A DNA stretch of 64,000 nt, from assembly GCA_027487835.1 (NCBI GenBank), contig JAIYCU010000012.1, positions 21,718-85,717 on the forward strand, in the 5' to 3' direction. The notes under the pieces were generated by a model that worked only from the letters and a program-made list of their open reading frames with translations, had not been told where the DNA came from and did no database searches. This document shows, piece after piece, positions 16,436 through 63,271 of the stretch. Source of the DNA: Bacteroidota bacterium (GTDB lineage: Bacteria; Bacteroidota; Bacteroidia; UKL13-3). The position numbers and the translations under genes are program-made. The stretch's first letter is position 1; the number at the start of each line of letters is the position of its first letter.

Positions 16436-18949
16436 TTATTCAGGTGTATCTATAATAGGGTCAATGTTTCCATCAACTGGTTCTTCTAACCCTTCTTCTT
16501 CCTCTTCTCCTGGTATATAATTGATTTTTGCAACACTTGCGATTTCATCTTTCTCTCCAATATTAATCAATCTTACACCCTGAGTTACCCTACCTAAAAT
16601 CCGAAGTTCTTTTACACTCAATCGAATAGTGATGCCACTTTTGTTAATAATCATGATGTCATTTGTATCATCAACATCTTTAATGGTTACTAACTTGCCA
16701 GTTTTATCTGTTACTTTCATGGCGCTCACGCCTTTTCCACCTCTGTTAGTGATTCTATAATCTTCCACTTCTGAGCGTTTGCCCATTCCGTTTTCAGTTA
16801 CTACAAGTACATTGGTTTTTGATGCATCTTCAATAGATGCCATACCAATTACCTCATCCCCTTCATCTAGCCTGATAGCCCTCACTCCTGTTGCATTTCT
16901 GCCCATTGGCCTTACCGTACTTTCATTGAATCTAATGGCTTTACCTTCTCTGCTTGCAATGATAATTTCGCTGGTACCATTGGTTAGCCTTGCTTCAACT
17001 AGGTTATCTCCTTCTCTTACATTAATTGCATTAATACCATTGGCTCTTGGTCGGCTATAGGCTTCCAAAGTAGTTTTCTTAATGGTACCTTTTTGTGTGA
17101 CCATGATGATATTATTCTGGTTGATATACTCCTCATCTACTAAAGTTCTCACGCACAAGAATGCTTTAACTTTTTCTTCAACTGGGATATTAATCAAGTT
17201 TTGAACGGCCCTTCCTTTGGTGTTCTTTTCACCTTCTGGAATTTCATAAACTCTTAACCAGAAACAACGACCTTGCTCTGTAAACAACATAAGGTAATTA
17301 TGGTTGGTTGCCATGAAAATATGTTCAACAAAATCTTCTTGACGTTTAGCTACTCCCCTGCTACCTCTTCCTCCTCTAGCTTGGGTGCGATATTCATTCA
17401 ATGAAGTACGTTTAACATAACCCAAATGTGAAATGGTAATTACCACTTCTTCATCCGGTATTAAGTCTTCCATACTCATTTCATTGCCTGCCATTTCTAT
17501 TACAGATCTGCGCTCATCGCCATATTTGCTCTTCATTTCGGCTAATTCATCCTTAATGATTTGCATTCTAAGTGGTTCGTTCGATAATATTTCGTTCAAC
17601 CTTGCAATTAACTCCATGATTTGCGCATACTCTTCCTTTATTTTGTCGCGCTCTAAGCCTGTTAAACGTTGTAAACGCATATCAAGAATGGCCTTAGATT
17701 GAATTTCAGAAAGTTTAAACCTTTCCATTAATCCATTTTTTGCCTCATCTGGTGTAGTGGCAGCTCTAATTAAAGCAATTACTTCGTCTAGATGATCTAA
17801 AGCAATTAATAAACCTTCTAAAATATGGGCTCGCTTTTGTGCCTCCTCCAAATCGTATTGAGTGCGCTTAATAACAACTTGATGCCTATGCTCTACAAAG
17901 TGAACAATTAAGTCTTTTAGGTTTAAAGTTTCAGGTCTTCCTTTAACTAGCGCAACATTATTTACACTGAAAGAAGTTTGTAGTTGTGTGTATTTAAAAA
18001 GTTTATTAAGCACCACATTTGGAACCGCATCTCTTTTTAAATCAAAAACCATACGCATCCCATCTCTATCACTTTCATCTCGCACATCACTGATGCCTTC
18101 AATCACTTTTTCATTTACTAAATCAGCAATTTGCTTGATAAGGGTAGCCTTATTAACTTGATAAGGGATCTCATGCACAACAATTTGGTCTTTCCCAGTT
18201 TTTGAGGTTTCAAAACCAGCTTGTGCGCGCATTACAATTCTACCTCTTCCCGTTTCTAAGGCTTGCTTAACCCCTTCATATCCGTAAATTATACCTCCAG
18301 TTGGAAAATCTGGCGCTTTAATGTACTTCATTAATTCAGGAATGGTGATTTCGCGATTGTCTATATAAGCAACAATTCCATCTACCACTTCAGATAAATT
18401 ATGAGGAGCCATATTGGTGGCCATACCAACTGCAATTCCAGAAGCCCCATTCATTAATAAATTAGGCACCTTTCCAGGAAGTACAGTAGGCTCAGTTAAG
18501 CTGTCATCAAAATTCGACCTAAAATCGACGGTATTTTTTTCTATGTCTGTTAAAAGTTCTTCTGCAATTTTTCTTAATCTGGCTTCTGTGTAACGCATTG
18601 CAGCTGGTGGATCGCCATCCACAGAACCAAAGTTACCTTGACCATCTACCAACATATAACGCATATTCCATTCTTGCGCCATCCTAACCATGGTATCATA
18701 AACCGAACTATCTCCATGGGGATGGTACTTTCCTAGTACCTCTCCTACAATACGCGCGCTCTTTTTGTAAGGTCTATTTGAGGCCAAGCCCAATTCTGTC
18801 ATTCCGTACAAAACCCTGCGATGTACAGGTTTTAATCCATCTCTTACATCTGGTAATGCTCTACTCACAATAACCGACATCGAATAATCGATGTAAGCGG
18901 TTTTCATTTCATCTTCAATGTTAATCTGTATAATTCTGTCTTCTGCCAT
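16436..18949 (-). CDS. gyrA: DNA gyrase subunit A
   Basis: 837 aa; canonical N-terminus [30 protein letters not shown], active-site Tyr region, C-terminal beta-pinwheel repeats. Confidence 0.93.
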
Positions 18950-22297: not shown

Positions 22298-24181
22298 CTA
22301 AACTAACTCTTCCTCCAAATCTTCTTCATAAACACTATCCTTTTCAATTCTAAGGTTATCGATGATGAAGTTTTGTCTATCCATTGTATTCTTACCCATG
22401 TAGTATTCTAGCATTTTTTGAATAGATAATTCTGGATTTAAGACAACAGGCTGCAAACGCATATCCTCGCCAATAAATAAACCAAACTCTTCAGGTGAAA
22501 TTTCACCTAAACCTTTAAATCGGGTAATTTCTGGCCTTGCGCCCAATTTGGTAATGGCTTTTTGCTTTTCTTCTTCACTGTAACAATAAAATGTTTTTTG
22601 CTTATTTCTAACCCTAAATAAAGGAGTATCAAGAATAAACAAGTGGCCATTTTTGGCTAAGTCTGGAAAAAATTGCAAGAAAAAGGTAAGTAAAAGCAAG
22701 CGAATATGCATTCCATCCACGTCGGCATCAGTTGCAATTACAATTCTATTATACCTTAAATCTTCAATACTTTCTTCAATATTGAGTGCATGCTGAAGCA
22801 AGTTGAATTCTTCGTTTTCGTATACAATTTTCTTGGTTAGTCCATAGGAATTTAAAGGCTTACCTCTTAATGAAAAAACAGCTTGTGTTTCTACATTTCT
22901 ACTTTTTGTAATTGAACCACTTGCCGAATCTCCTTCAGTAATGAACAAGGTAGATTCTAGTTTCTTTTCCTCATTTTTTCCTTCATTTAAATGAAGTCGG
23001 CAATCTCTCAATTTTTTATTATGCAAGTTGGCCTTCTTAGCTCTTTCATTGGCAAGCTTTTTAATGCCTGCCATTTCTTTTCGCTCTCTTTCGCTTTGGT
23101 TTATTCTTCTTAATAAAGCGTCTGCCGCCTCTGGGTGCTTATGAAGATAATCATCTAAACTCTTCTTCATAAAGTCCATCACAAATTGCTTTACAGTTGG
23201 TGATTCAGTTGGCGCCATGTTTATTGAGCCAAGTTTTGTTTTGGTCTGACTTTCAAACACTGGTTCCTGAACCCTCAAACTAACTGCGGCAATGATACTT
23301 GCGCGGATATCTGCTAAATCAAAATCCTTCTTGTAAAAATCTCTAATGGTTTTGGCAAAGGCTTCTCTAAAGGCATTTAAGTGCGTTCCACCCATGGTGG
23401 TGTGCTGTCCATTAACAAATGAGTAATAATCCTCACCATATTGATTTTCGTGGGTAATAGCTACTTCAATATCCTCCCCTTTTAAATGAATAATTGGATA
23501 TTTAAGTTCTTCCTCGGTAGTTTTGCGTTTGAGCAAGTCTAGTAAGCCATCCTTAGAAAAATATTTTTTATCGTTGAACCATATTGTTAAACCGGAGTTA
23601 AGATAAACATAGTTCCAAAGTAAGTTTTCAATGTATTCATTGACAAACCGAAAATGCTTAAAAATAGTATCATCTGCTATAAATGATATAGCAGTGCCAT
23701 TTGGCTCAATAGTATCTTGTAATTTATGCTCTTGTGAAAGTTGACCTTTTTCAAATTCGGCTATTTTAGTTTTGCCTTCCCTAAAACTTTGCGCTTTAAA
23801 ATAAATAGATAAAGCATTAACAGCTTTGGTACCCACCCCGTTTAAGCCTACTGATTTCTTAAACGCAGCCGAATCATACTTTCCTCCTGTATTAATTTGA
23901 GAAACACACTCAATTACTTTTCCTAATGGAATTCCCCTACCATAATCTCTTACTGTAACCTTATTATCTACAATTTTTATATCGATTTGCTTCCCATTAC
24001 CCATTACAAACTCATCAATGGAATTGTCTATTATTTCTTTTAATAGAATATAAATACCGTCATCCATGGCACTGCCATCGCCAAGCTTACCAATGTACAT
24101 TCCTGGCCTTAACCTAATATGCTCCCGCCAATCAAGGGACTTAATACTGCTTTCGTCGTATTTTACTACTTCCTCTGCCAT
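22298..24181 (-). CDS. parE: type IIA topoisomerase B subunit, topoisomerase IV ParE-like (627 aa; shorter than GyrB)
   Basis: GHKL ATPase motifs ([23 protein letters not shown]), TOPRIM EGDSASG, PLRGKPLN motif; length and lack of the GyrB insertion favour ParE. Confidence 0.75.
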
Positions 24182-37102: not shown

Positions 37103-37186
37103 GCCGTGGTGGTGAAATTGGTAGACATGCCATCTTGAGGGGGTGGTGCTCGCAAGGGCGTAGGAGTTCGAGTCTCCTTCACGGCA
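37103..37186 (+). tRNA. tRNA-Leu (anticodon GAG)
   Basis: manual cloverleaf: acceptor GCCGTGG/TCACGGC, D-loop with GG, anticodon stem CCATC/GGTGG, loop TTGAGGG (anticodon GAG, G37), long variable arm, T-arm AGGAG TTCGAGT CTCCT; 84 nt; CCA not encoded. Confidence 0.85.
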
Positions 37187-37193
37187 CAAAAAA

Positions 37194-56911: not shown

Positions 56912-57727
56912 TTGAAGTTTAATATAGCATTTATGATAAGTAACCATGAAATAGACTTTCGCATTTTTGGAAGTGAAATGCAATGTGTAGAAATTGAATT
57001 AGACCCAAATGAAACCGTAATGGCAGAGCCTGGTTCATTTATGATGATGAATGATGGTGTTCAAATGAATACCATTTTTGGAGATGGCTCTCAACAACAA
57101 AGCGGCATTTTTGGCAAATTAATGTCGGCCGGAAAGCGCTTACTCACCGGCGAAAGCTTATTTATGACGGCTTACACCAATATGGGTTCAGGCAAAAAAA
57201 CAGTAACATTTGCCTCTCCATATCCAGGAAAAATCATTCCCATAGATCTTAGCAAAATGGGAGGCAAAATGACTTGCCAAAAAGATTCATTTTTGTGCGC
57301 AGCCAAAGGAGTTAGTGTAGGCATAGAGTTTCAAAAGAAACTAGGCACTGGCTTATTTGGTGGAGAAGGTTTTATTATGCAAAAACTAGAAGGTGACGGA
57401 ATGGCCTTTGTGCATGCAGGCGGGCATGTTGAGGAAAGAGAATTAATGCCTGGCGAAATATTAAAAGTAGATACAGGTTGTATTGTTGCCTTTACCAAAG
57501 AAATTGATTATGATATTCAATTTGTAGGTGGGATTAAAAACACCTTGTTTGGTGGTGAAGGTGTTTTCTTTGCAACACTAAGAGGGCCAGGAAAAGTATG
57601 GATTCAATCTTTACCAATTAGCAGGTTGGCTGGTAGAATATTGCAATATGGCAGCGTTGGCGGCAGACGTGAAGAAGGCGGAATATTAGGCGGATTAGGA
57701 AATATTTTGGATGGCGATGGGTATTAA
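56912..57727 (+). CDS. AIM24/TIGR00266 (DUF124) family protein
   Basis: 271 aa; characteristic pattern [21 protein letters not shown]...G..M..F and a Gly-rich C-terminal tail. Confidence 0.65.
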
Positions 57728-58736
57728 AAAAATTGACGTCCATGCGCATATTCTTCCCGAGTTTATGCCCAACCTTAAAGATAGGTATGGCTATGGAAAT
57801 GAGTTTATTTATTTAGACCACTTTCAGCCAGGAAGGGCCAATATGATGAAGGCAGATGGAACTTTTTTTAGAACCATTGATGAACTTTGTTGGAACCCAG
57901 AATCCATTATTGAGCACATGGATAAACATGGGGTTGAACTAATGGCCTTATCTATTGTTCCGGTATTGTTTTATTATTGGGCAAAGCCAGAACATACACA
58001 CGAGTGGGCGCAGTACTATAATAACCATGTTTCTAAAATTCAGGAAACCTACCCCACTCGTTTTGTGGGATTAGGCACCTTGCCCATGCAAGACATTACA
58101 AGAGCCTGTGAAGAATTGTCGCGTTGTAAATATGAGTTGAACCTACCTGGTGTTGAAATTGGAACACATATAGAACATAGAAATTTGGACGATCCTTATT
58201 ACTACCCTTTCTATGAAACTGCAGAGAAGTTGGGCATGTGCATTTTTGTGCATCCTTGGGATATGATGGGGCAAGAAAAAATGCCTAATTACTTTTTACC
58301 TTGGTTGGTGGGAATGCCAGCCGAAACTTCTTTGGCCATTTGCAGCATGATGTTTGGTGGTATCTTTGATAAGTATCCAAAACTAAGGGTATTATTTGCC
58401 CATGGAGGCGGCTGTTTCCCTCAAACAATTGGCAGAATTAGCCATGCTTATCATGCAAGACCAGATTTATGCAATGTTCATAAGGTGGCTGATCCAAGAA
58501 CCTATACCGATAAATTCTATATCGACTCTTTGGTGCACGACGACGAAACCTTTGAATTCTTATTGAAAATGTTTGGGCCAGGAAAAATCGCCATGGGTTC
58601 TGATTTTCCATTTCCATTGGGAGATTTAGAACATGGTAAGTTTATTGAGTTAATGAAAGAGCTTCCAGAGGATACTAAACTAAAATTACTAAGAACTACT
58701 GCACTAGAATGGTTGGGGATTGATGTGGGGGAATAA
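57717..58736 (+). CDS. metal-dependent amidohydrolase (amidohydrolase_2 / ACMSD-like decarboxylase family)
   Basis: [12 protein letters not shown]-terminal metal-binding HxH, internal H and D residues typical of ACMSD-like TIM-barrel hydrolases; ATG 57717 overlaps the last 11 nt of the AIM24 gene. Confidence 0.7.
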
Positions 58737-58770
58737 GGTGTTTATTTGGAAGTAACCTCAAATTAACCCA

Positions 58771-59097
58771 ATTCATTGAAAGTATTATGAATTTGGTAAT
58801 ACTTTCAACCAAATTCATTAAACGTATCGTGTTTTTGGTAATACTTTCAACCAAAATCATTGAAAGTATTATGTTTTTAGTAATACTTTCAACCAAATTC
58901 ATTGAACGTATCGTGTTTTTGGTGATACATTCAACCAAAATCATTGAACGTATTATGTTTTTAGTGATACTTTTAATCAAAATTATTGAACGTATCGTGT
59001 TTTTGATGATACTTTCAACCAAAATCATTGAACGTATCGTGTTTTTAGTAATACGTTCAACCAAAATCATTGAACGTATTATGTTTTTTGTTGAAGC
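58771..59097. repeat. tandem array of ~7.8 copies of a 41-43-bp hairpin-forming repeat (consensus ATCATTGAACGTATYRTGTTTTTRGTRATACTTTCAACCAAA)
   Basis: units at 58771, 58813, 58856, 58897, 58940, 58982, 59024 and a partial at 59066; each half-unit TTGAAMGTATYR is the inverted complement of the GTAATACKTTCAA half, giving 12-bp stems within and between units. The track ORFs 58696..59070(-) and 58787..59167(+) are repeat artefacts. Confidence 0.9.
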
Positions 59098-59222
59098 TAT
59101 AAACCTTCACTCCAAACTGCCTTTCTCTGCACACAATCGTTCAAACTTTAGCGACTTTGTTTTTTAAATTTAAAATTAAAGCATGATTATTGAAACTATA
59201 AATACATCTAAAATATCTAATT

Positions 59223-60176
59223 ATGAATACACCAGAAAAAATTGAATGCCTAATTGTAGGTTCAGGGCCTGCAGGATATACTGCAGCTATATACGCCGCG
59301 CGTGCCGATATGAAACCAGTTATGTATGCAGGAATGCAACCTGGCGGACAACTTACCATTACTACAGATGTGGAGAATTACCCTGGATATCCTGATGGTA
59401 TCATGGGGCCAGAAATGATGGAACTGTTTCGCAAACAAGCTGAACGCTTTGGAACGGATGTTCGTTATGGTATGATTACCTCGGTTGACTTTAGCGGCAA
59501 ACCTCCCTTTAAATTGATTGCAGATGAAAATCATGAAATTTTGGCCGAGACTGTCATTATTGCAACTGGCGCAAGTGCCAAATGGTTAGGTATTCCTTCA
59601 GAAGAAAAATTAAATGGTCGTGGTGTGAGTGCCTGTGCTGTTTGTGATGGATTTTTCTTTAGAGGTAAAGACGTTGCCATTGTAGGGGCTGGTGATACAG
59701 CTTGTGAAGAAGCTTCATACCTTGCAAAAATTTGTAGCAAAGTATACATGATTGTGAGACGTGATGAGTTTAGAGCTTCTAAAGCTATGCAACATCGCGT
59801 TTTAAATACACCAAATATTGAGGTCATTTTCAACGCAGTTACAGACGAAATCCTTGGAGAAAACGCGGTGGAAGGTGCACGAATTAAAATAGGTTCAAAC
59901 GGAGAAACCAGAACCATTGACGTAAAGGGATTCTTTGTTGCCATTGGCCATCAGCCTAATACAGGTATATTTAAAGATTTTTTAGATATGGATGAAACTG
60001 GATATTTGTTAACTACTCCTGGCACCACTAAAACCAATGTAGAAGGTGTATTTGCTTGTGGCGATGCCCAAGATAAAGTATACAGACAAGCTGTGACAGC
60101 TGCAGGTAGTGGTTGTATGGCTGCATTGGATGCTGAGCGCTATTTAGCCGCTAAACATTCCCCTGTTGAGGCCTAA
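59223..60176 (+). CDS. trxB: thioredoxin-disulfide reductase
   Basis: 317 aa; FAD motif GSGPAGYTAAIY, redox-active CAVCDG, NADPH motif GAGDTACEEA. Confidence 0.9.
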   Translation: MNTPEKIECLIVGSGPAGYTAAIYAARADMKPVMYAGMQPGGQLTITTDVENYPGYPDGIMGPEMMELFRKQAERFGTDVRYGMITSVDFSGKPPFKLIADENHEILAETVIIATGASAKWLGIPSEEKLNGRGVSACAVCDGFFFRGKDVAIVGAGDTACEEASYLAKICSKVYMIVRRDEFRASKAMQHRVLNTPNIEVIFNAVTDEILGENAVEGARIKIGSNGETRTIDVKGFFVAIGHQPNTGIFKDFLDMDETGYLLTTPGTTKTNVEGVFACGDAQDKVYRQAVTAAGSGCMAALDAERYLAAKHSPVEA

Positions 60177-60179
60177 ATT

Positions 60180-60518
60180 ATGAATTGGATCGTTCTTTCT
60201 GAAATGAGTCAATTGGATTATATTGATGAACTCAGTGCAACCAAACCAGTTTTGATATTTAAGCACAGCACACGATGCAGCATTAGTTCTACTGCTCTTT
60301 CTCGGTTTGAAAGAAACTATAATGTTGATGATGAACCCACGATGCTTGCTTACTATTTAGATTTGATAAAATTTCGCAGTATTTCAAATGAAATAGCTAG
60401 TAGGTATCACATTGAACATCAATCGCCACAAGCCTTGCTAATTAAAAATGGCAAATGCGTGCATGATAGTTCACATTTTGAAATCGATTACCAAGAAGTA
60501 ATTCAATTAATGAAATAG
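60180..60518 (+). CDS. ytxJ: YtxJ-like monothiol thioredoxin-fold protein (DUF2847; bacillithiol-system-associated family)
   Basis: 112 aa; LIFKHSTRCSIS monothiol TxCS motif characteristic of YtxJ; 3 nt after the trxB stop. Confidence 0.6.
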   Translation: MNWIVLSEMSQLDYIDELSATKPVLIFKHSTRCSISSTALSRFERNYNVDDEPTMLAYYLDLIKFRSISNEIASRYHIEHQSPQALLIKNGKCVHDSSHFEIDYQEVIQLMK

Positions 60519-60568: not shown

Positions 60569-63271
60569 TTAAAATAATTTGGGTTGATCCGAATCCGGCT
60601 TACCCGTTTTCTTTGATTTGTCAGAAGATTTAGGCTTATCAAATTCTTCTTCGTCTGCCAGTAACTTTTTTATCCGTTCTTCTTCCTGTTGAAACAAATC
60701 TAGGTTAACTGATATTTCTTCTGACTCAATAGATTCTTGAACCTGTTCTTCCATTTCATCTTGCGGATCTGGTGGTAGTAACTCAATTTGGTTCAAATCT
60801 GAACCACAAAACTTATTTCCAATCGCTTTCCATCCTTTTACCTCAATGGCCTCGGCTAAATTGATTTGTTCATCTTTGATTGCCTTCCCTTTGCCTGAAG
60901 AAAGTATGACTACCGGATTTTTAAAATCAGTTGCCAATAAAATATAATTGTCTTTTTCTTCAGGAATACACATAAATTTCTTGTTCATCGTAAGCGTTTC
61001 AATTAAAAATCGCTTTAGATTAAATTGTTTAGCTTTTGCATCAAAATAGACCAAAGTAATGGGTCTACTTGGCTTAAACTTGCTAATGTGCAATAATTGG
61101 TCGGCCTCAAAATGATTAGAGACATCAAAATTAGTTAGCTCATAATTACCATCTTTATAAAGGGAAATAATTTGATCAGCCCCACTAAAGTTTCCAATAA
61201 AATTTCCATGTTGATTTACATTTAGCCTGCCAATAGCTGGGTCGTACCAAATGTCTATGCCCCCTAAAGTTGAAATTCCTTTAGATTTTAGCTTTATTCC
61301 TTTTACCAAATATTTGCTTACAATATTTCCTTGTACACTTCTTCCCTTGATGGCGAGTTCTGTGAAGTCGAAATCAAAACTAAGTTTACGGGCATGGCTT
61401 AAAGGGCTTAGTGTAATGGCAACCACTTCGGCTTCTCCGCTTGGATTGGCAGTAAAGTATAGGATACGTGAGCCAGTTGAGCCTTGGGTCAAATCATATT
61501 CTTTATCTCTTGTAATTCCTGTAACAGGAAAACGCTTTGCATAACTTACTTTGGTTTTACCATCTAAATAAATCATGTTGTAGATTCTACGTTCATCATT
61601 TTTTCTAAAAACATCTACATGTAAGATATCCTTACCCATAAAGGCTTTATCTTGTACTTTACTCACCACCATGGTACCATCTTTTCTAAACACAATGATG
61701 TCATCAATATCTGAGCATTCTGTAACAAAATCATCCTTTTTCAATCCAAAACCAACAAAACCTTCTGCTTTATTTACATAAAGTTTCTGATTAGCAATGG
61801 CAACTTGTTTGGAATCGATATTATCAAAGGTTCTGATTTCTGTGCGTCTTTCTCTGCCTTTACCATATTTTTTAAGTAGATTTTCAAAATATTTAACGGC
61901 ATAAACCCGCAGATTTTCAAGGTTATTTTTAACTTCCTCTAGCTGATTTTCAAGGCCACGCATAATGTCGTCTGCCTTAAAAGAATCATATTTACTAATA
62001 CGTTTAATTTTAATTTCAGTTAAACGTAAAATATCATCCTCTGATAACTCTCTCCTAAATAGCTTTTTAAATTTATTCATACCTTTCCAAATGGTATCAA
62101 TCACTTCTTCAAAGCTTTCACAATCTTCAATGTCTCGATAAATTCTTTTTTCGATAAATATTTTTTCGATGCTGCTATAATGCCATTGTTCTTCAAGTTC
62201 TTTTTGCTTTATCTCAAGCTCTTGTTGCAATAGCTCCTTGGTTTTTTCTGTGGAGATTTTAAGCAATTCATCCACCCCAACAAACATGGGTCGGTTGTCT
62301 ACAATTATGCAAGCATTTGGAGAAATGCTTACTTCGCAATCTGTAAAAGCATACAGCGCATCTATGGTTTTATCAGGGGAAACACCCGCTGTGAGTTGAA
62401 CTTCAATTTCTACCTCTTTCGCGGTATTATCAATTACCTTTTTAATTTTAATTTTTCCAGAATCATTTGCCTTTATGATTGAATCAATCAATTGATTGGT
62501 AGTTACACCAAAGGGTACATCCTTTATAAATAGGGTTTTATTGTCTTTCTCTTCTATTTTAGCCCTGACCCTAATCTTCCCTCCCTTTTTCCCTAAGTTA
62601 TAATTGGTTACATCTACCAATCCTCCTGTTAGAAAATCGGGATATAAATCAAAAGGTTTTCCCTTTAGGTAATCGATGCTAGCCGTTAGTAATTCACAAA
62701 AATTATGTGGCATAACCTTAGTAGCTAAACCTACTGCTATACCTTCAACCCCTTGCGCAAGTAGCAAAGGGAACTTCATTGGCAAAGTAATGGGTTCCTT
62801 TTTTCTGCCATCATAAGAGTTTTGCCAAAAAGTAGTTTGCTTATTAAAGGCAACCTCTAATGCAAATTTAGAAAGCCTTGCTTCAATGTATCTTGGAGCA
62901 GCAGCAGAATCCCCTGTCCTATTATCCCCCCAATTTCCTTGGGTTTCTATTAATAGTTCTTTTTGACCCAAATTAACCATGGCATCTCCAATAGCAGCAT
63001 CTCCATGTGGGTGATATTGCATAGTTTGCCCAATAACATTGGCCACTTTATTAAACCTTCCGTCATCCATTTCCTTCATAGAATGAAGGATTCTACGTTG
63101 CACAGGTTTAAGTCCATCTTCTATAGCTGGAACTGCCCTTTCTAAGATTACATAGGAGGCATAATCTAAAAACCAGTTTTGGTACAAGCCACTTACCTGT
63201 GTAATATGGTATTCTCCTCCAGTTGCATCCGTTTGGCCTTCAGGATTTTCATTAAATTTATTGTCTTCCAT
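60569..63271 (-). CDS. parC: type IIA topoisomerase A subunit, topoisomerase IV ParC-like (900 aa)
   Basis: N-terminal YASYVILERAVPAIEDGLKPVQRRILHSM, catalytic Tyr region, long C-terminal domain ending in an acidic/lysine-rich tail; distinct from gyrA at 16436..18949. Confidence 0.8.
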   Translation of the reverse strand: MEDNKFNENPEGQTDATGGEYHITQVSGLYQNWFLDYASYVILERAVPAIEDGLKPVQRRILHSMKEMDDGRFNKVANVIGQTMQYHPHGDAAIGDAMVNLGQKELLIETQGNWGDNRTGDSAAAPRYIEARLSKFALEVAFNKQTTFWQNSYDGRKKEPITLPMKFPLLLAQGVEGIAVGLATKVMPHNFCELLTASIDYLKGKPFDLYPDFLTGGLVDVTNYNLGKKGGKIRVRAKIEEKDNKTLFIKDVPFGVTTNQLIDSIIKANDSGKIKIKKVIDNTAKEVEIEVQLTAGVSPDKTIDALYAFTDCEVSISPNACIIVDNRPMFVGVDELLKISTEKTKELLQQELEIKQKELEEQWHYSSIEKIFIEKRIYRDIEDCESFEEVIDTIWKGMNKFKKLFRRELSEDDILRLTEIKIKRISKYDSFKADDIMRGLENQLEEVKNNLENLRVYAVKYFENLLKKYGKGRERRTEIRTFDNIDSKQVAIANQKLYVNKAEGFVGFGLKKDDFVTECSDIDDIIVFRKDGTMVVSKVQDKAFMGKDILHVDVFRKNDERRIYNMIYLDGKTKVSYAKRFPVTGITRDKEYDLTQGSTGSRILYFTANPSGEAEVVAITLSPLSHARKLSFDFDFTELAIKGRSVQGNIVSKYLVKGIKLKSKGISTLGGIDIWYDPAIGRLNVNQHGNFIGNFSGADQIISLYKDGNYELTNFDVSNHFEADQLLHISKFKPSRPITLVYFDAKAKQFNLKRFLIETLTMNKKFMCIPEEKDNYILLATDFKNPVVILSSGKGKAIKDEQINLAEAIEVKGWKAIGNKFCGSDLNQIELLPPDPQDEMEEQVQESIESEEISVNLDLFQQEEERIKKLLADEEEFDKPKSSDKSKKTGKPDSDQPKLF

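Follow-up and report, generated by a model that had tools for sequence, protein, structure and literature searches.

What is a run of tandem 42-bp units doing directly in front of a thioredoxin reductase gene? We analyzed a stretch of 64,000 nucleotides (the window) from contig JAIYCU010000012.1 of the Bacteroidota genome GCA_027487835.1, in which such an array separates a gene of the Amidohydro_2 family from trxB. TrxB homologs place the organism in an uncultured lineage of Bacteroidota (Bacteroidia). A reading made earlier from the letters of this DNA alone (the sequence-only reading) had proposed several roles for the repeats, among them a leader or regulator of trxB-ytxJ, a hairpin under selection and a dispersed element similar to repetitive extragenic palindromes (REP) or bacterial interspersed mosaic elements (BIME). 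The comparisons reported here somewhat favor a different view: that the array is a non-coding minisatellite, belonging to a small genus-restricted repeat family that resides in accessory-gene hot spots and moves with accessory DNA.

Structure of the array

Tandem Repeats Finder detected a single substantial tandem array in the window, located at 58765-59088, with a period of 42 bp, 7.7 copies, 85% matches and a score of 445. This is essentially the array that had been outlined before at 58771-59097 with ~7.8 copies. A period of 84 bp fits it better (3.9 copies, 89% matches, score 494), and the array is built of 84-bp dimers, with 'TA...AG' and 'CG...GG' units in alternation. The consensus of the 42-bp unit, AACCAAAATCATTGAACGTATTATGTTTTTGGTAATACTTTC, was obtained from Tandem Repeats Finder, register print-outs and a pattern count; a 27-nt degenerate unit pattern had 7 matches in the window versus 0.00 expected (100 shuffles).

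Each unit contains, in this order, a left arm (TTGAAMGTATYR), 9 nt (TGTTTTTRG), a right arm (YRATACKTTCAA) and another 9 nt (CCAAAWTCA). Fifteen such 12-nt arms lie within 58776-59081 (left arms at 58776 + 42n, right arms at 58797 + 42n); they flip orientation every 21 bp and are separated by 9-nt linkers of these two types. Register print-outs reproduced the arm geometry given by the sequence-only reading, as well as the perfect 12-bp stems that it had placed inside units 1 and 3 and between units 2/3 and 7/8. In the alignment, a degenerate terminal unit at 59059-59106 (AACCAAAATCATTGAACGTATTATGTTTTTTGTTGAAGCTATAAACC) forms the edge of the array, and this edge is common to a sister array described below. 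The units abut without spacers and no Cas family was found in Pfam scans of the larger open reading frames (ORFs) of the window, in line with the earlier view that the array does not resemble a CRISPR array. Looked at as a possible sign of intrinsic curvature, the 10.5-bp AA/TT periodicity of the array had a power of 3.2, versus a background mean of 0.28; it is among the harmonics of the 42-bp repeat, of which another is larger. With units that differ among themselves by 7-26%, the array cannot be very young.

The array is not an artifact of one assembly, as independent Logan assemblies stop inside its last unit. Logan contigs with an identical TrxB (three on record; two shown, SRR16126855 and SRR16126877) end exactly there; a tandem repeat is expected to have this effect on a de Bruijn graph. 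Ends of short-read (Logan) contigs inside 42-bp arrays were observed at L001:1-40, at L002:1-40 and at the end of L061 (L numbers denote the fetched loci). This implies a systematic under-representation of such arrays in the metagenome assemblies that we searched. Exact-protein look-ups with the window amidohydrolase and its 418-aa neighbor, made for contigs entering the array from the left, matched no record.

The amidohydrolase-trxB junction in relatives

The amidohydrolase gene (Amidohydro_2 family, 57711-58736, + strand) and trxB (Pyr_redox_2, 59223-60176, +) are 486 bp apart in the window, and trxB is followed by brxC/ytxJ (60180-60518, +). The ORF list and the Pfam scan agreed with the amidohydrolase stop at 58736 and the trxB start at 59223 noted earlier. 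Relatives with 93-98% identical TrxB do not have the array at this junction. In loci whose TrxB is 93% identical to that of the window (L023-L032), the amidohydrolase gene runs straight into trxB, with 16 nt between the called genes, and the same arrangement, with 27 nt between them, was seen in L048, a member of the window's 90%-identity TrxB cluster. Other relatives carry cargo genes at the junction. These comprise a protein with a type IX secretion system (T9SS) tail (Por_Secre_tail) and an AAA_14/DUF4143 ATPase in L017-19 (TrxB 98%), and two small genes without an assigned family (196 and 81 aa) plus AAA_14 in L046 (TrxB 97%). Within the same 90% TrxB cluster, L049 has a T9SS-tail protein (Por_Secre_tail), antitoxin/PemK and AAA_14, L047 has genes without an assigned family and AAA_14, and in L054/55 AAA_14 is internally deleted.

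Homology of the window to these relatives (blastn) stops at 58742-58758 and restarts at 59133-59135: it ends at 58758 for L046, and resumes at 59134-59135 for L017, L046, L047 and L049 and at 59133 for L054. The break-points delimit 375 bp of lineage-private DNA (58759-59133) that is absent from every relative's amidohydrolase-trxB junction. It consists of 342 bp of array and further DNA, including 27 nt (59107-59133) without a traced origin. The next 34 nt (59134-59167, +) were recognized by comparison with relatives as a remnant of the 3' end of the AAA_14/DUF4143 ATPase gene (...NRSNFSDFVF stop), that is, the fossil last 11 codons of a 374-aa gene that is intact in L017, L046, L047 and L049. 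Closer to trxB, a stretch of 50 nt (59173-59222, +) is kept in all relatives, including those with empty junctions; blastn homology to L023/L024 resumes at 59173. When the origin of the unit was sought in the relatives' cargo and in the AAA_14 gene, no similarity was found beyond the 34-nt remnant.

The junction was ancestrally tight and has turned, in this clade, into a swap site for cargo genes. In the window version the cargo is gone and the AAA_14/DUF4143 gene is reduced to 34 nt, and 375 bp stand in place of what was lost. Given that close relatives do without it at this junction, the array cannot be a conserved part of trxB control, and the leader or regulator of trxB-ytxJ suggested by the sequence-only reading is unlikely. 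Being dispensable in close relatives, the array matters little for trxB biology. The locus is nevertheless a clean small example of a tight housekeeping junction turning into a swap site for accessory cassettes.

As a separate observation on these cassettes, intact AAA_14 genes are preceded by a conserved palindromic operator-like region, ATCTACAAATTTGCGTKAATTTGTAGAT (L017 ~2740-2840, L046 ~2700-2800), and this region survives alone in L054:4320-4390.

A sister array at an unrelated locus

A 67-aa 'protein' (P0146), 65% identical to the - strand ORF of the window array (phmmer), proved to be the translation of a homologous 42-bp array. This sister array has 6.4 copies with 89% matches and is located on contig JAIYDE010000050.1 of GCA_027487655.1 (L060), where a 159-aa gene with a GC-rich terminator precedes the array, and a PIN toxin-antitoxin pair, then a DDE transposase fragment and more small genes follow it. 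The two arrays are 75-79% identical, with E-values down to 9e-68 (blastn). Both end in the same degenerate unit, ...ATTAKGTTTT(T)WKGTTGAAG..AACC, and their flanks are otherwise unrelated. The trxB junction of GCA_027487655.1 (L049) holds cargo and no array, and the L060 array lies at an unrelated locus. Flank DNA of this genome is 85-89% identical to that of the window, and we read it, on sequence grounds, as a probable sister species.

A block of ~27 nt, GTRATACKTTCAACCAAAWTCAYTGAA, is kept between the window and sister arrays. The palindrome fared differently. Interior arms of the sister array (CTGAAAGGATGG versus TGATACGTTCAA) pair at 6-9 of 12 positions, with hairpins mostly of -2 to -4 kcal/mol, and its decayed edge unit keeps a window-like arm, TTAAACATATTA. 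The palindrome therefore looks ancestral and unmaintained, and each array appears to have been homogenized internally, suggesting concerted evolution.

A Logan assembly of the same locus as L060 (L059) contains 3.4 copies, three units fewer, between flanks that are 98-99% identical. This difference is either real copy-number variation or repeat collapse in a short-read assembly; Logan assemblies use k = 31, which could collapse three units.

The contig that bears the sister array (L060:1-4635) is rich in accessory genes: it encodes a secreted 284-aa protein, two unrelated 159-aa proteins, the PIN toxin and its antitoxin (74 aa), and a fragment of DDE_Tnp_1_6. In addition, the final 145 bp show weak similarity (70-74%) to stretches without annotation on plasmids of Myroides and Chryseobacterium.

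Pairing, folding and covariation

The inverted repeat itself is real. Among 13 units, 81% of arm cells are in standard pairs, compared to 30-42% when the partner is slid by 1-3 columns; this set, which was also used for covariation and for the profile, comprises the units of the two homologous arrays (window and sister). The sequence-only reading had seen compensatory substitutions in neighboring arms and had taken them to argue for selection on the hairpin, and neither claim was borne out. Adjacent arms form on average 10.1 of 12 pairs within units and 10.0 between units, versus 10.05 for all left-by-right combinations (permutation P = 0.25), so that neighbors pair no better than random combinations. 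The covariation score of the 13 units was at shuffle level, with 232 of 500 shuffles reaching it. Position 6 is C in 6 of 8 left arms, and the matching G is present in just 1 of 7 right arms. Energies of single hairpins range from 0 to -13.7 kcal/mol across the units of the window array, and the poor pairing of the sister arms also argues against such selection. There is no sign of pairing being maintained in the arms of the array.

The region as a whole folds far better than shuffles (z = -6.5 for the + strand and -7.8 for the - strand), which is a trivial outcome of repeating an inverted repeat. The strongest hairpin that is followed by a U-run is at 59049-59081, then TGTTTTTTG, with -10.9 kcal/mol. 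A match to a known Rfam family, which the earlier reading had named as a finding that would count against it, did not appear: the best match of the array region in an E-value-threshold scan had 26 bits versus a gathering threshold of 89 bits, and a gathering-threshold scan of the whole window gave zero matches.

Open reading frames across the array

One frame is open on each strand of the array (58787-59167, +; 58696-59070, -), because 42 is divisible by three. The + ORF had no homolog among 5.8 billion proteins, and it closes with the fossil remains of the C-terminus that the deleted AAA_14 gene encoded. For the - ORF, the sole true relative was the translation of another array, and other matches were unrelated proteins with repeats of a 14-residue period. 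Neither ORF had a Pfam match. Substitutions among units are distributed 13/5/11 over codon positions 1/2/3. These data uphold the earlier assessment that the ORFs are generated by the repeat.

Occurrence of the repeat family

In the window and ~60 fetched loci, nhmmer with a profile of the 13 units detected no solitary or diverged copy (best non-array match, E = 4.7), and a scan of the 64 kb with the unit pattern found no further copy outside the array. Exact-pattern scans of 185,579 species-representative genomes (GTDB), metagenome contigs of the Joint Genome Institute (JGI) and IMG/VR identified no related array. The private 375 bp had no blastn match among plasmid and phage records, and a profile search with the translated arrays revealed no further related array in the set of 5.8 billion proteins.

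Candidate matches from the pattern scans were rejected. The palindrome pattern matched 14 genome stretches on 13 contigs from unrelated taxa, with a number of independent elements at chance level; these were single sites, except for one contig of a Eubacteriales metagenome-assembled genome (MAG) with three. Among JGI and viral matches to the linker plus arm, 11 corresponded to one coding motif (...STTKIIESI...) and 2 were isolated singles, none being an array. The 22-nt linker plus arm pattern falls by chance in this conserved motif (L033-L041, L043 and L045), which has nothing to do with the array; the 11 sequences are homologous marine sequences from ten metagenome contigs and one viral contig.

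As judged from these searches, the repeat family appears to have few copies and to be confined to this lineage, a single genus of uncultured Bacteroidota, with the proviso that short-read assemblies under-represent such arrays. Part of the idea of a REP/BIME-like dispersed element thus stands, in that a second, unrelated locus exists; its dispersal does not, the family being low-copy with no further copy in 64 kb.

A second 21-bp-period array and a phage analog

A different tandem array was found at the same amidohydrolase-trxB junction in L047 (positions 1007-1300; JGI 3300077578, Ga0643544_0000046). It has periods of 21, 42 and 84 bp, the 84-bp period with 88% matches, and consists of a 21-bp unit, CWACGGAGATGYAATTTGTAT, interspersed with palindrome-forming TTAAATAAATACAAAACATGA units. 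Homology between this array and that of the window was rejected, as the local alignment score was below that of column-shuffled controls.

We also considered a palindrome of the same geometry, TTGAAAGTATGA-N9-TCATACTTTCAA (12+9+12), which abuts a TTGACA box and occurs 9 times in a 40-kb viral contig (L056/L057; IMGVR_UViG_3300047200_000362). The same palindrome is present 3 times in the Eubacteriales MAG contig (L010/L011; CAYNMU010000008.1). It looks like a repeated phage promoter/operator, to judge by its sequence setting. As a homolog of the window unit it was rejected: the geometry matches, yet it is probably a chance analog. The resemblance is no greater than chance would give for an AT-rich pattern of 20 nt, and its source is a Firmicutes-type phage.

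Comparison with known repeat systems

Within the same phylum, the BrickBuilt elements of P. gingivalis are tandem 23-nt repeats with a leader and a tail, present in 19 copies per genome, always intergenic and with bidirectional promoter activity (PMC4596501). The window array shares with them its occurrence in Bacteroidota at more than one locus, a spacer-less imperfect tandem core, degenerate flanking segments and a strictly intergenic position; in both cases, annotation pipelines call spurious ORFs across the repeats. However, the window unit is 42 bp long with an internal 12+9+12 palindrome and has no sequence relation to the 23-nt repeat, no leader, tail or terminal inverted repeats were found here, and two loci in two species are known, compared to 19 per genome.

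Similarity to proteobacterial REP/BIME elements (PMC2817692, PMC3333891) is seen in extragenic palindromes with regular spacing, alternating orientation and two linker types, and in a location between co-oriented genes, where hairpins could stabilize or attenuate mRNA. However, REPs are individually palindromic and accompanied by a RAYT transposase, whereas the 12-nt arm described here is not a palindrome and two arms are needed to form one. REP/BIME elements are dispersed, usually with >100 copies per genome (PMC2817692); here, no other copy occurs in 64 kb, and the scan of GTDB representatives found no multi-copy Bacteroidota genome. No RAYT (Y1 transposase) was detected among the scanned window genes.

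In sopC of the F plasmid, a 43-bp direct repeat occurs 12 times, and SopB binds the 16-bp inverted repeat that every copy contains (PMC3177203). In architecture, a dozen or so 43-bp direct repeats with an inverted repeat are close to the 7.7 x 42 bp of the window. In contrast to sopC, the array has no adjacent sopA/sopB-type (ParA/ParB) genes, its flanks being amidohydrolase, trxB, brxC and parC-like genes; the two are not similar in sequence, the window array sits among chromosomal housekeeping genes, and its inverted repeat has not been kept in the sister array. The array therefore resembles BrickBuilt, REP/BIME and sopC without having the defining features of any one of them. Its closest fit is ordinary bacterial minisatellite, or variable-number tandem repeat (VNTR), DNA. 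Among such loci are the mycobacterial interspersed repetitive units (MIRUs), repeats of ~40-100 bp that follow each other head to tail in the space between genes of the same orientation; the unit length is a multiple of three, and the units are imperfect, with more degeneration at the edges. The window array is also head-to-tail and intergenic, with imperfect units that are more degenerate at the edges and a unit length within the 10-100 bp range of VNTRs. Its copy number may vary, as suggested by 6.4 copies in L060 versus 3.4 in L059, although k-mer assembly could have collapsed repeats.

Origin of the array and alternative explanations

If the array is minisatellite DNA carried along with accessory genes, it would have arrived at the junction by recombination, together with or between accessory cassettes. 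It would then grow and shrink by replication slippage or unequal exchange in 42- or 84-bp registers and be homogenized by concerted evolution. The 12+9+12 palindrome would be an ancestral trait of the seed unit, perhaps a former operator or terminator, that was not maintained and decayed in the sister array. Its effect at this site would be incidental, at most that of a passive spacer or a weak hairpin barrier between the amidohydrolase gene and trxB; any read-through transcript would receive a series of weak AT-rich hairpins, several of them followed by a U-run, and trxB would keep its own conserved 50-nt upstream stretch. The two loci would in that case exemplify a minisatellite family that relocates between swap sites and evolves in concert while the ancestral palindrome decays in one copy; they also exemplify arrays that break short-read assemblies and yield spurious ORF calls. 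Several points weigh against this explanation. The unrelated 21/42/84-bp array of L047 at the very same junction is poorly explained by pure chance. Phasing of the arms at 21 bp, two helical turns, has by analogy the look of a protein-binding platform, and the conserved block GTRATACKTTCAACCAAAWTCAYTGAA also fits one. Persistence of an array whose units have diverged this far could reflect some use. Moreover, copy number per genome is uncertain, as 64 kb of this genome were covered and short-read assemblies break at arrays.

In the main rival explanation, the phased arms would serve a dimeric DNA-binding protein as repeated sites (centromere-like of the sopC type, iteron-like or operator), and the array would be left from, or still serve, a mobile or plasmid-derived accessory cassette. 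We consider this possible but unlikely. Twelve-nucleotide arms every 21 bp with alternating orientation in 42-bp units come close to F-plasmid sopC, ~27 nt are common to both arrays, both loci lie among toxin-antitoxin and transposase genes typical of maintenance modules, and an unrelated array of 21-bp period occupies the junction in L047; the TTGAAAGTATGA-N9-TCATACTTTCAA palindrome, found 9 times by TTGACA boxes, shows that such a site can be a repeated operator. However, no par, rep or other candidate partner gene lies beside the window array, where the scanned genes are all housekeeping, the palindrome is largely lost in the sister array, plasmid and phage collections gave no match, and the phage resemblance is at chance level and comes from a Firmicutes-type phage. 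A bolder version, to which we give little credence, is that this genus has small mobile accessory cassettes of a class not yet described, for which the 21-bp-phased arrays (the 42-bp family and the L047 array) are protein-binding platforms. Such cassettes would have the amidohydrolase-trxB junction and other hot spots as recurrent targets, and the window array would be the orphaned cis-site of a lost cassette. If true, this would represent a new kind of integration/maintenance module in environmental Bacteroidota.

Mobility could also be a property of the array itself, as a MITE-like element (MITE, miniature inverted-repeat transposable element) with a minisatellite core of the BrickBuilt type, inserted between genes and able to bring promoter or terminator activity. 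The same array, including the decayed edge unit, does occur in two unrelated contexts in two species of one genus, both sites are intergenic, and BrickBuilt provides a precedent in the phylum. Nonetheless, we found no terminal inverted repeats, target duplication or shared leader or tail beyond one degenerate unit, the flanks diverging immediately; L060 has no long inverted repeats, two loci only are known with no extra copy in 64 kb or ~60 fetched loci, and no transposase is linked in the window, making this explanation clearly improbable. A structured RNA, either a multi-hairpin intercistronic leader or 3'-untranslated region (a REP/BIME-like mRNA stabilizer or attenuator) or a small RNA acting on trxB-ytxJ, is in our view very improbable. 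Read-through transcription is plausible given the position of the array between two genes of the same orientation that directly adjoin each other in relatives, hairpins between units are followed by UGUUUUU, and the folds of both strands exceed shuffles; however, strong folding follows trivially from inverted repeats, covariation is lacking, individual hairpins are as weak as 0 and no stronger than -13.7 kcal/mol, the structure is lost in the sister array, and the array has no Rfam match and is missing in relatives with near-identical TrxB. That one of the two open frames encodes a protein of 14-residue repeats is hardly credible: the period is a multiple of 3, each strand has an open frame, and a gene caller did call the equivalent frame in the sister array (P0146), but the + ORF has no homolog and closes with the C-terminus of a fossil gene, the - ORF has just one genuine relative, itself an array, substitutions do not cluster at third codon positions, and Pfam gave no match.

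Genomic context of the window

Pfam scans of the larger window ORFs revealed housekeeping genes only, including gyrA, parC/parE-like genes, peptidases, TonB receptors and a tRNA synthetase, among others; no cas, par, rep or transposase gene was detected among them. gyrA, a gene for a GyrB/ParE-type subunit and a second topoisomerase IV/gyrase A-type gene occur within 47 kb (16436-18949, 22298-24181 and 60569-63271), and these gyrase/topoisomerase genes are an ordinary chromosomal housekeeping context. One tRNA-Leu is present in the window (37103-37187).

With regard to possible signals around the array, a scan for sigma-70 promoters and terminators gave consensus-level matches inside the arms only, no more than in shuffles, and this promoter type is not appropriate for Bacteroidota. 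The -7 promoter motif of Bacteroidota is TAnnTTTG. No match to it was found on the + strand at 58700-59230.

Finally, the start of trxB is annotated differently in relatives, where an upstream ATG is used and the gene call gains 13 codons (329-330 aa). The window has that upstream ATG too (59183), but a 1-nt indel shifts it out of frame with the ATG at 59223 (region 59183-59225), suggesting that the shorter start, which gives a 317-aa TrxB (MNTPEKIE...), is probably the true one in the whole clade.

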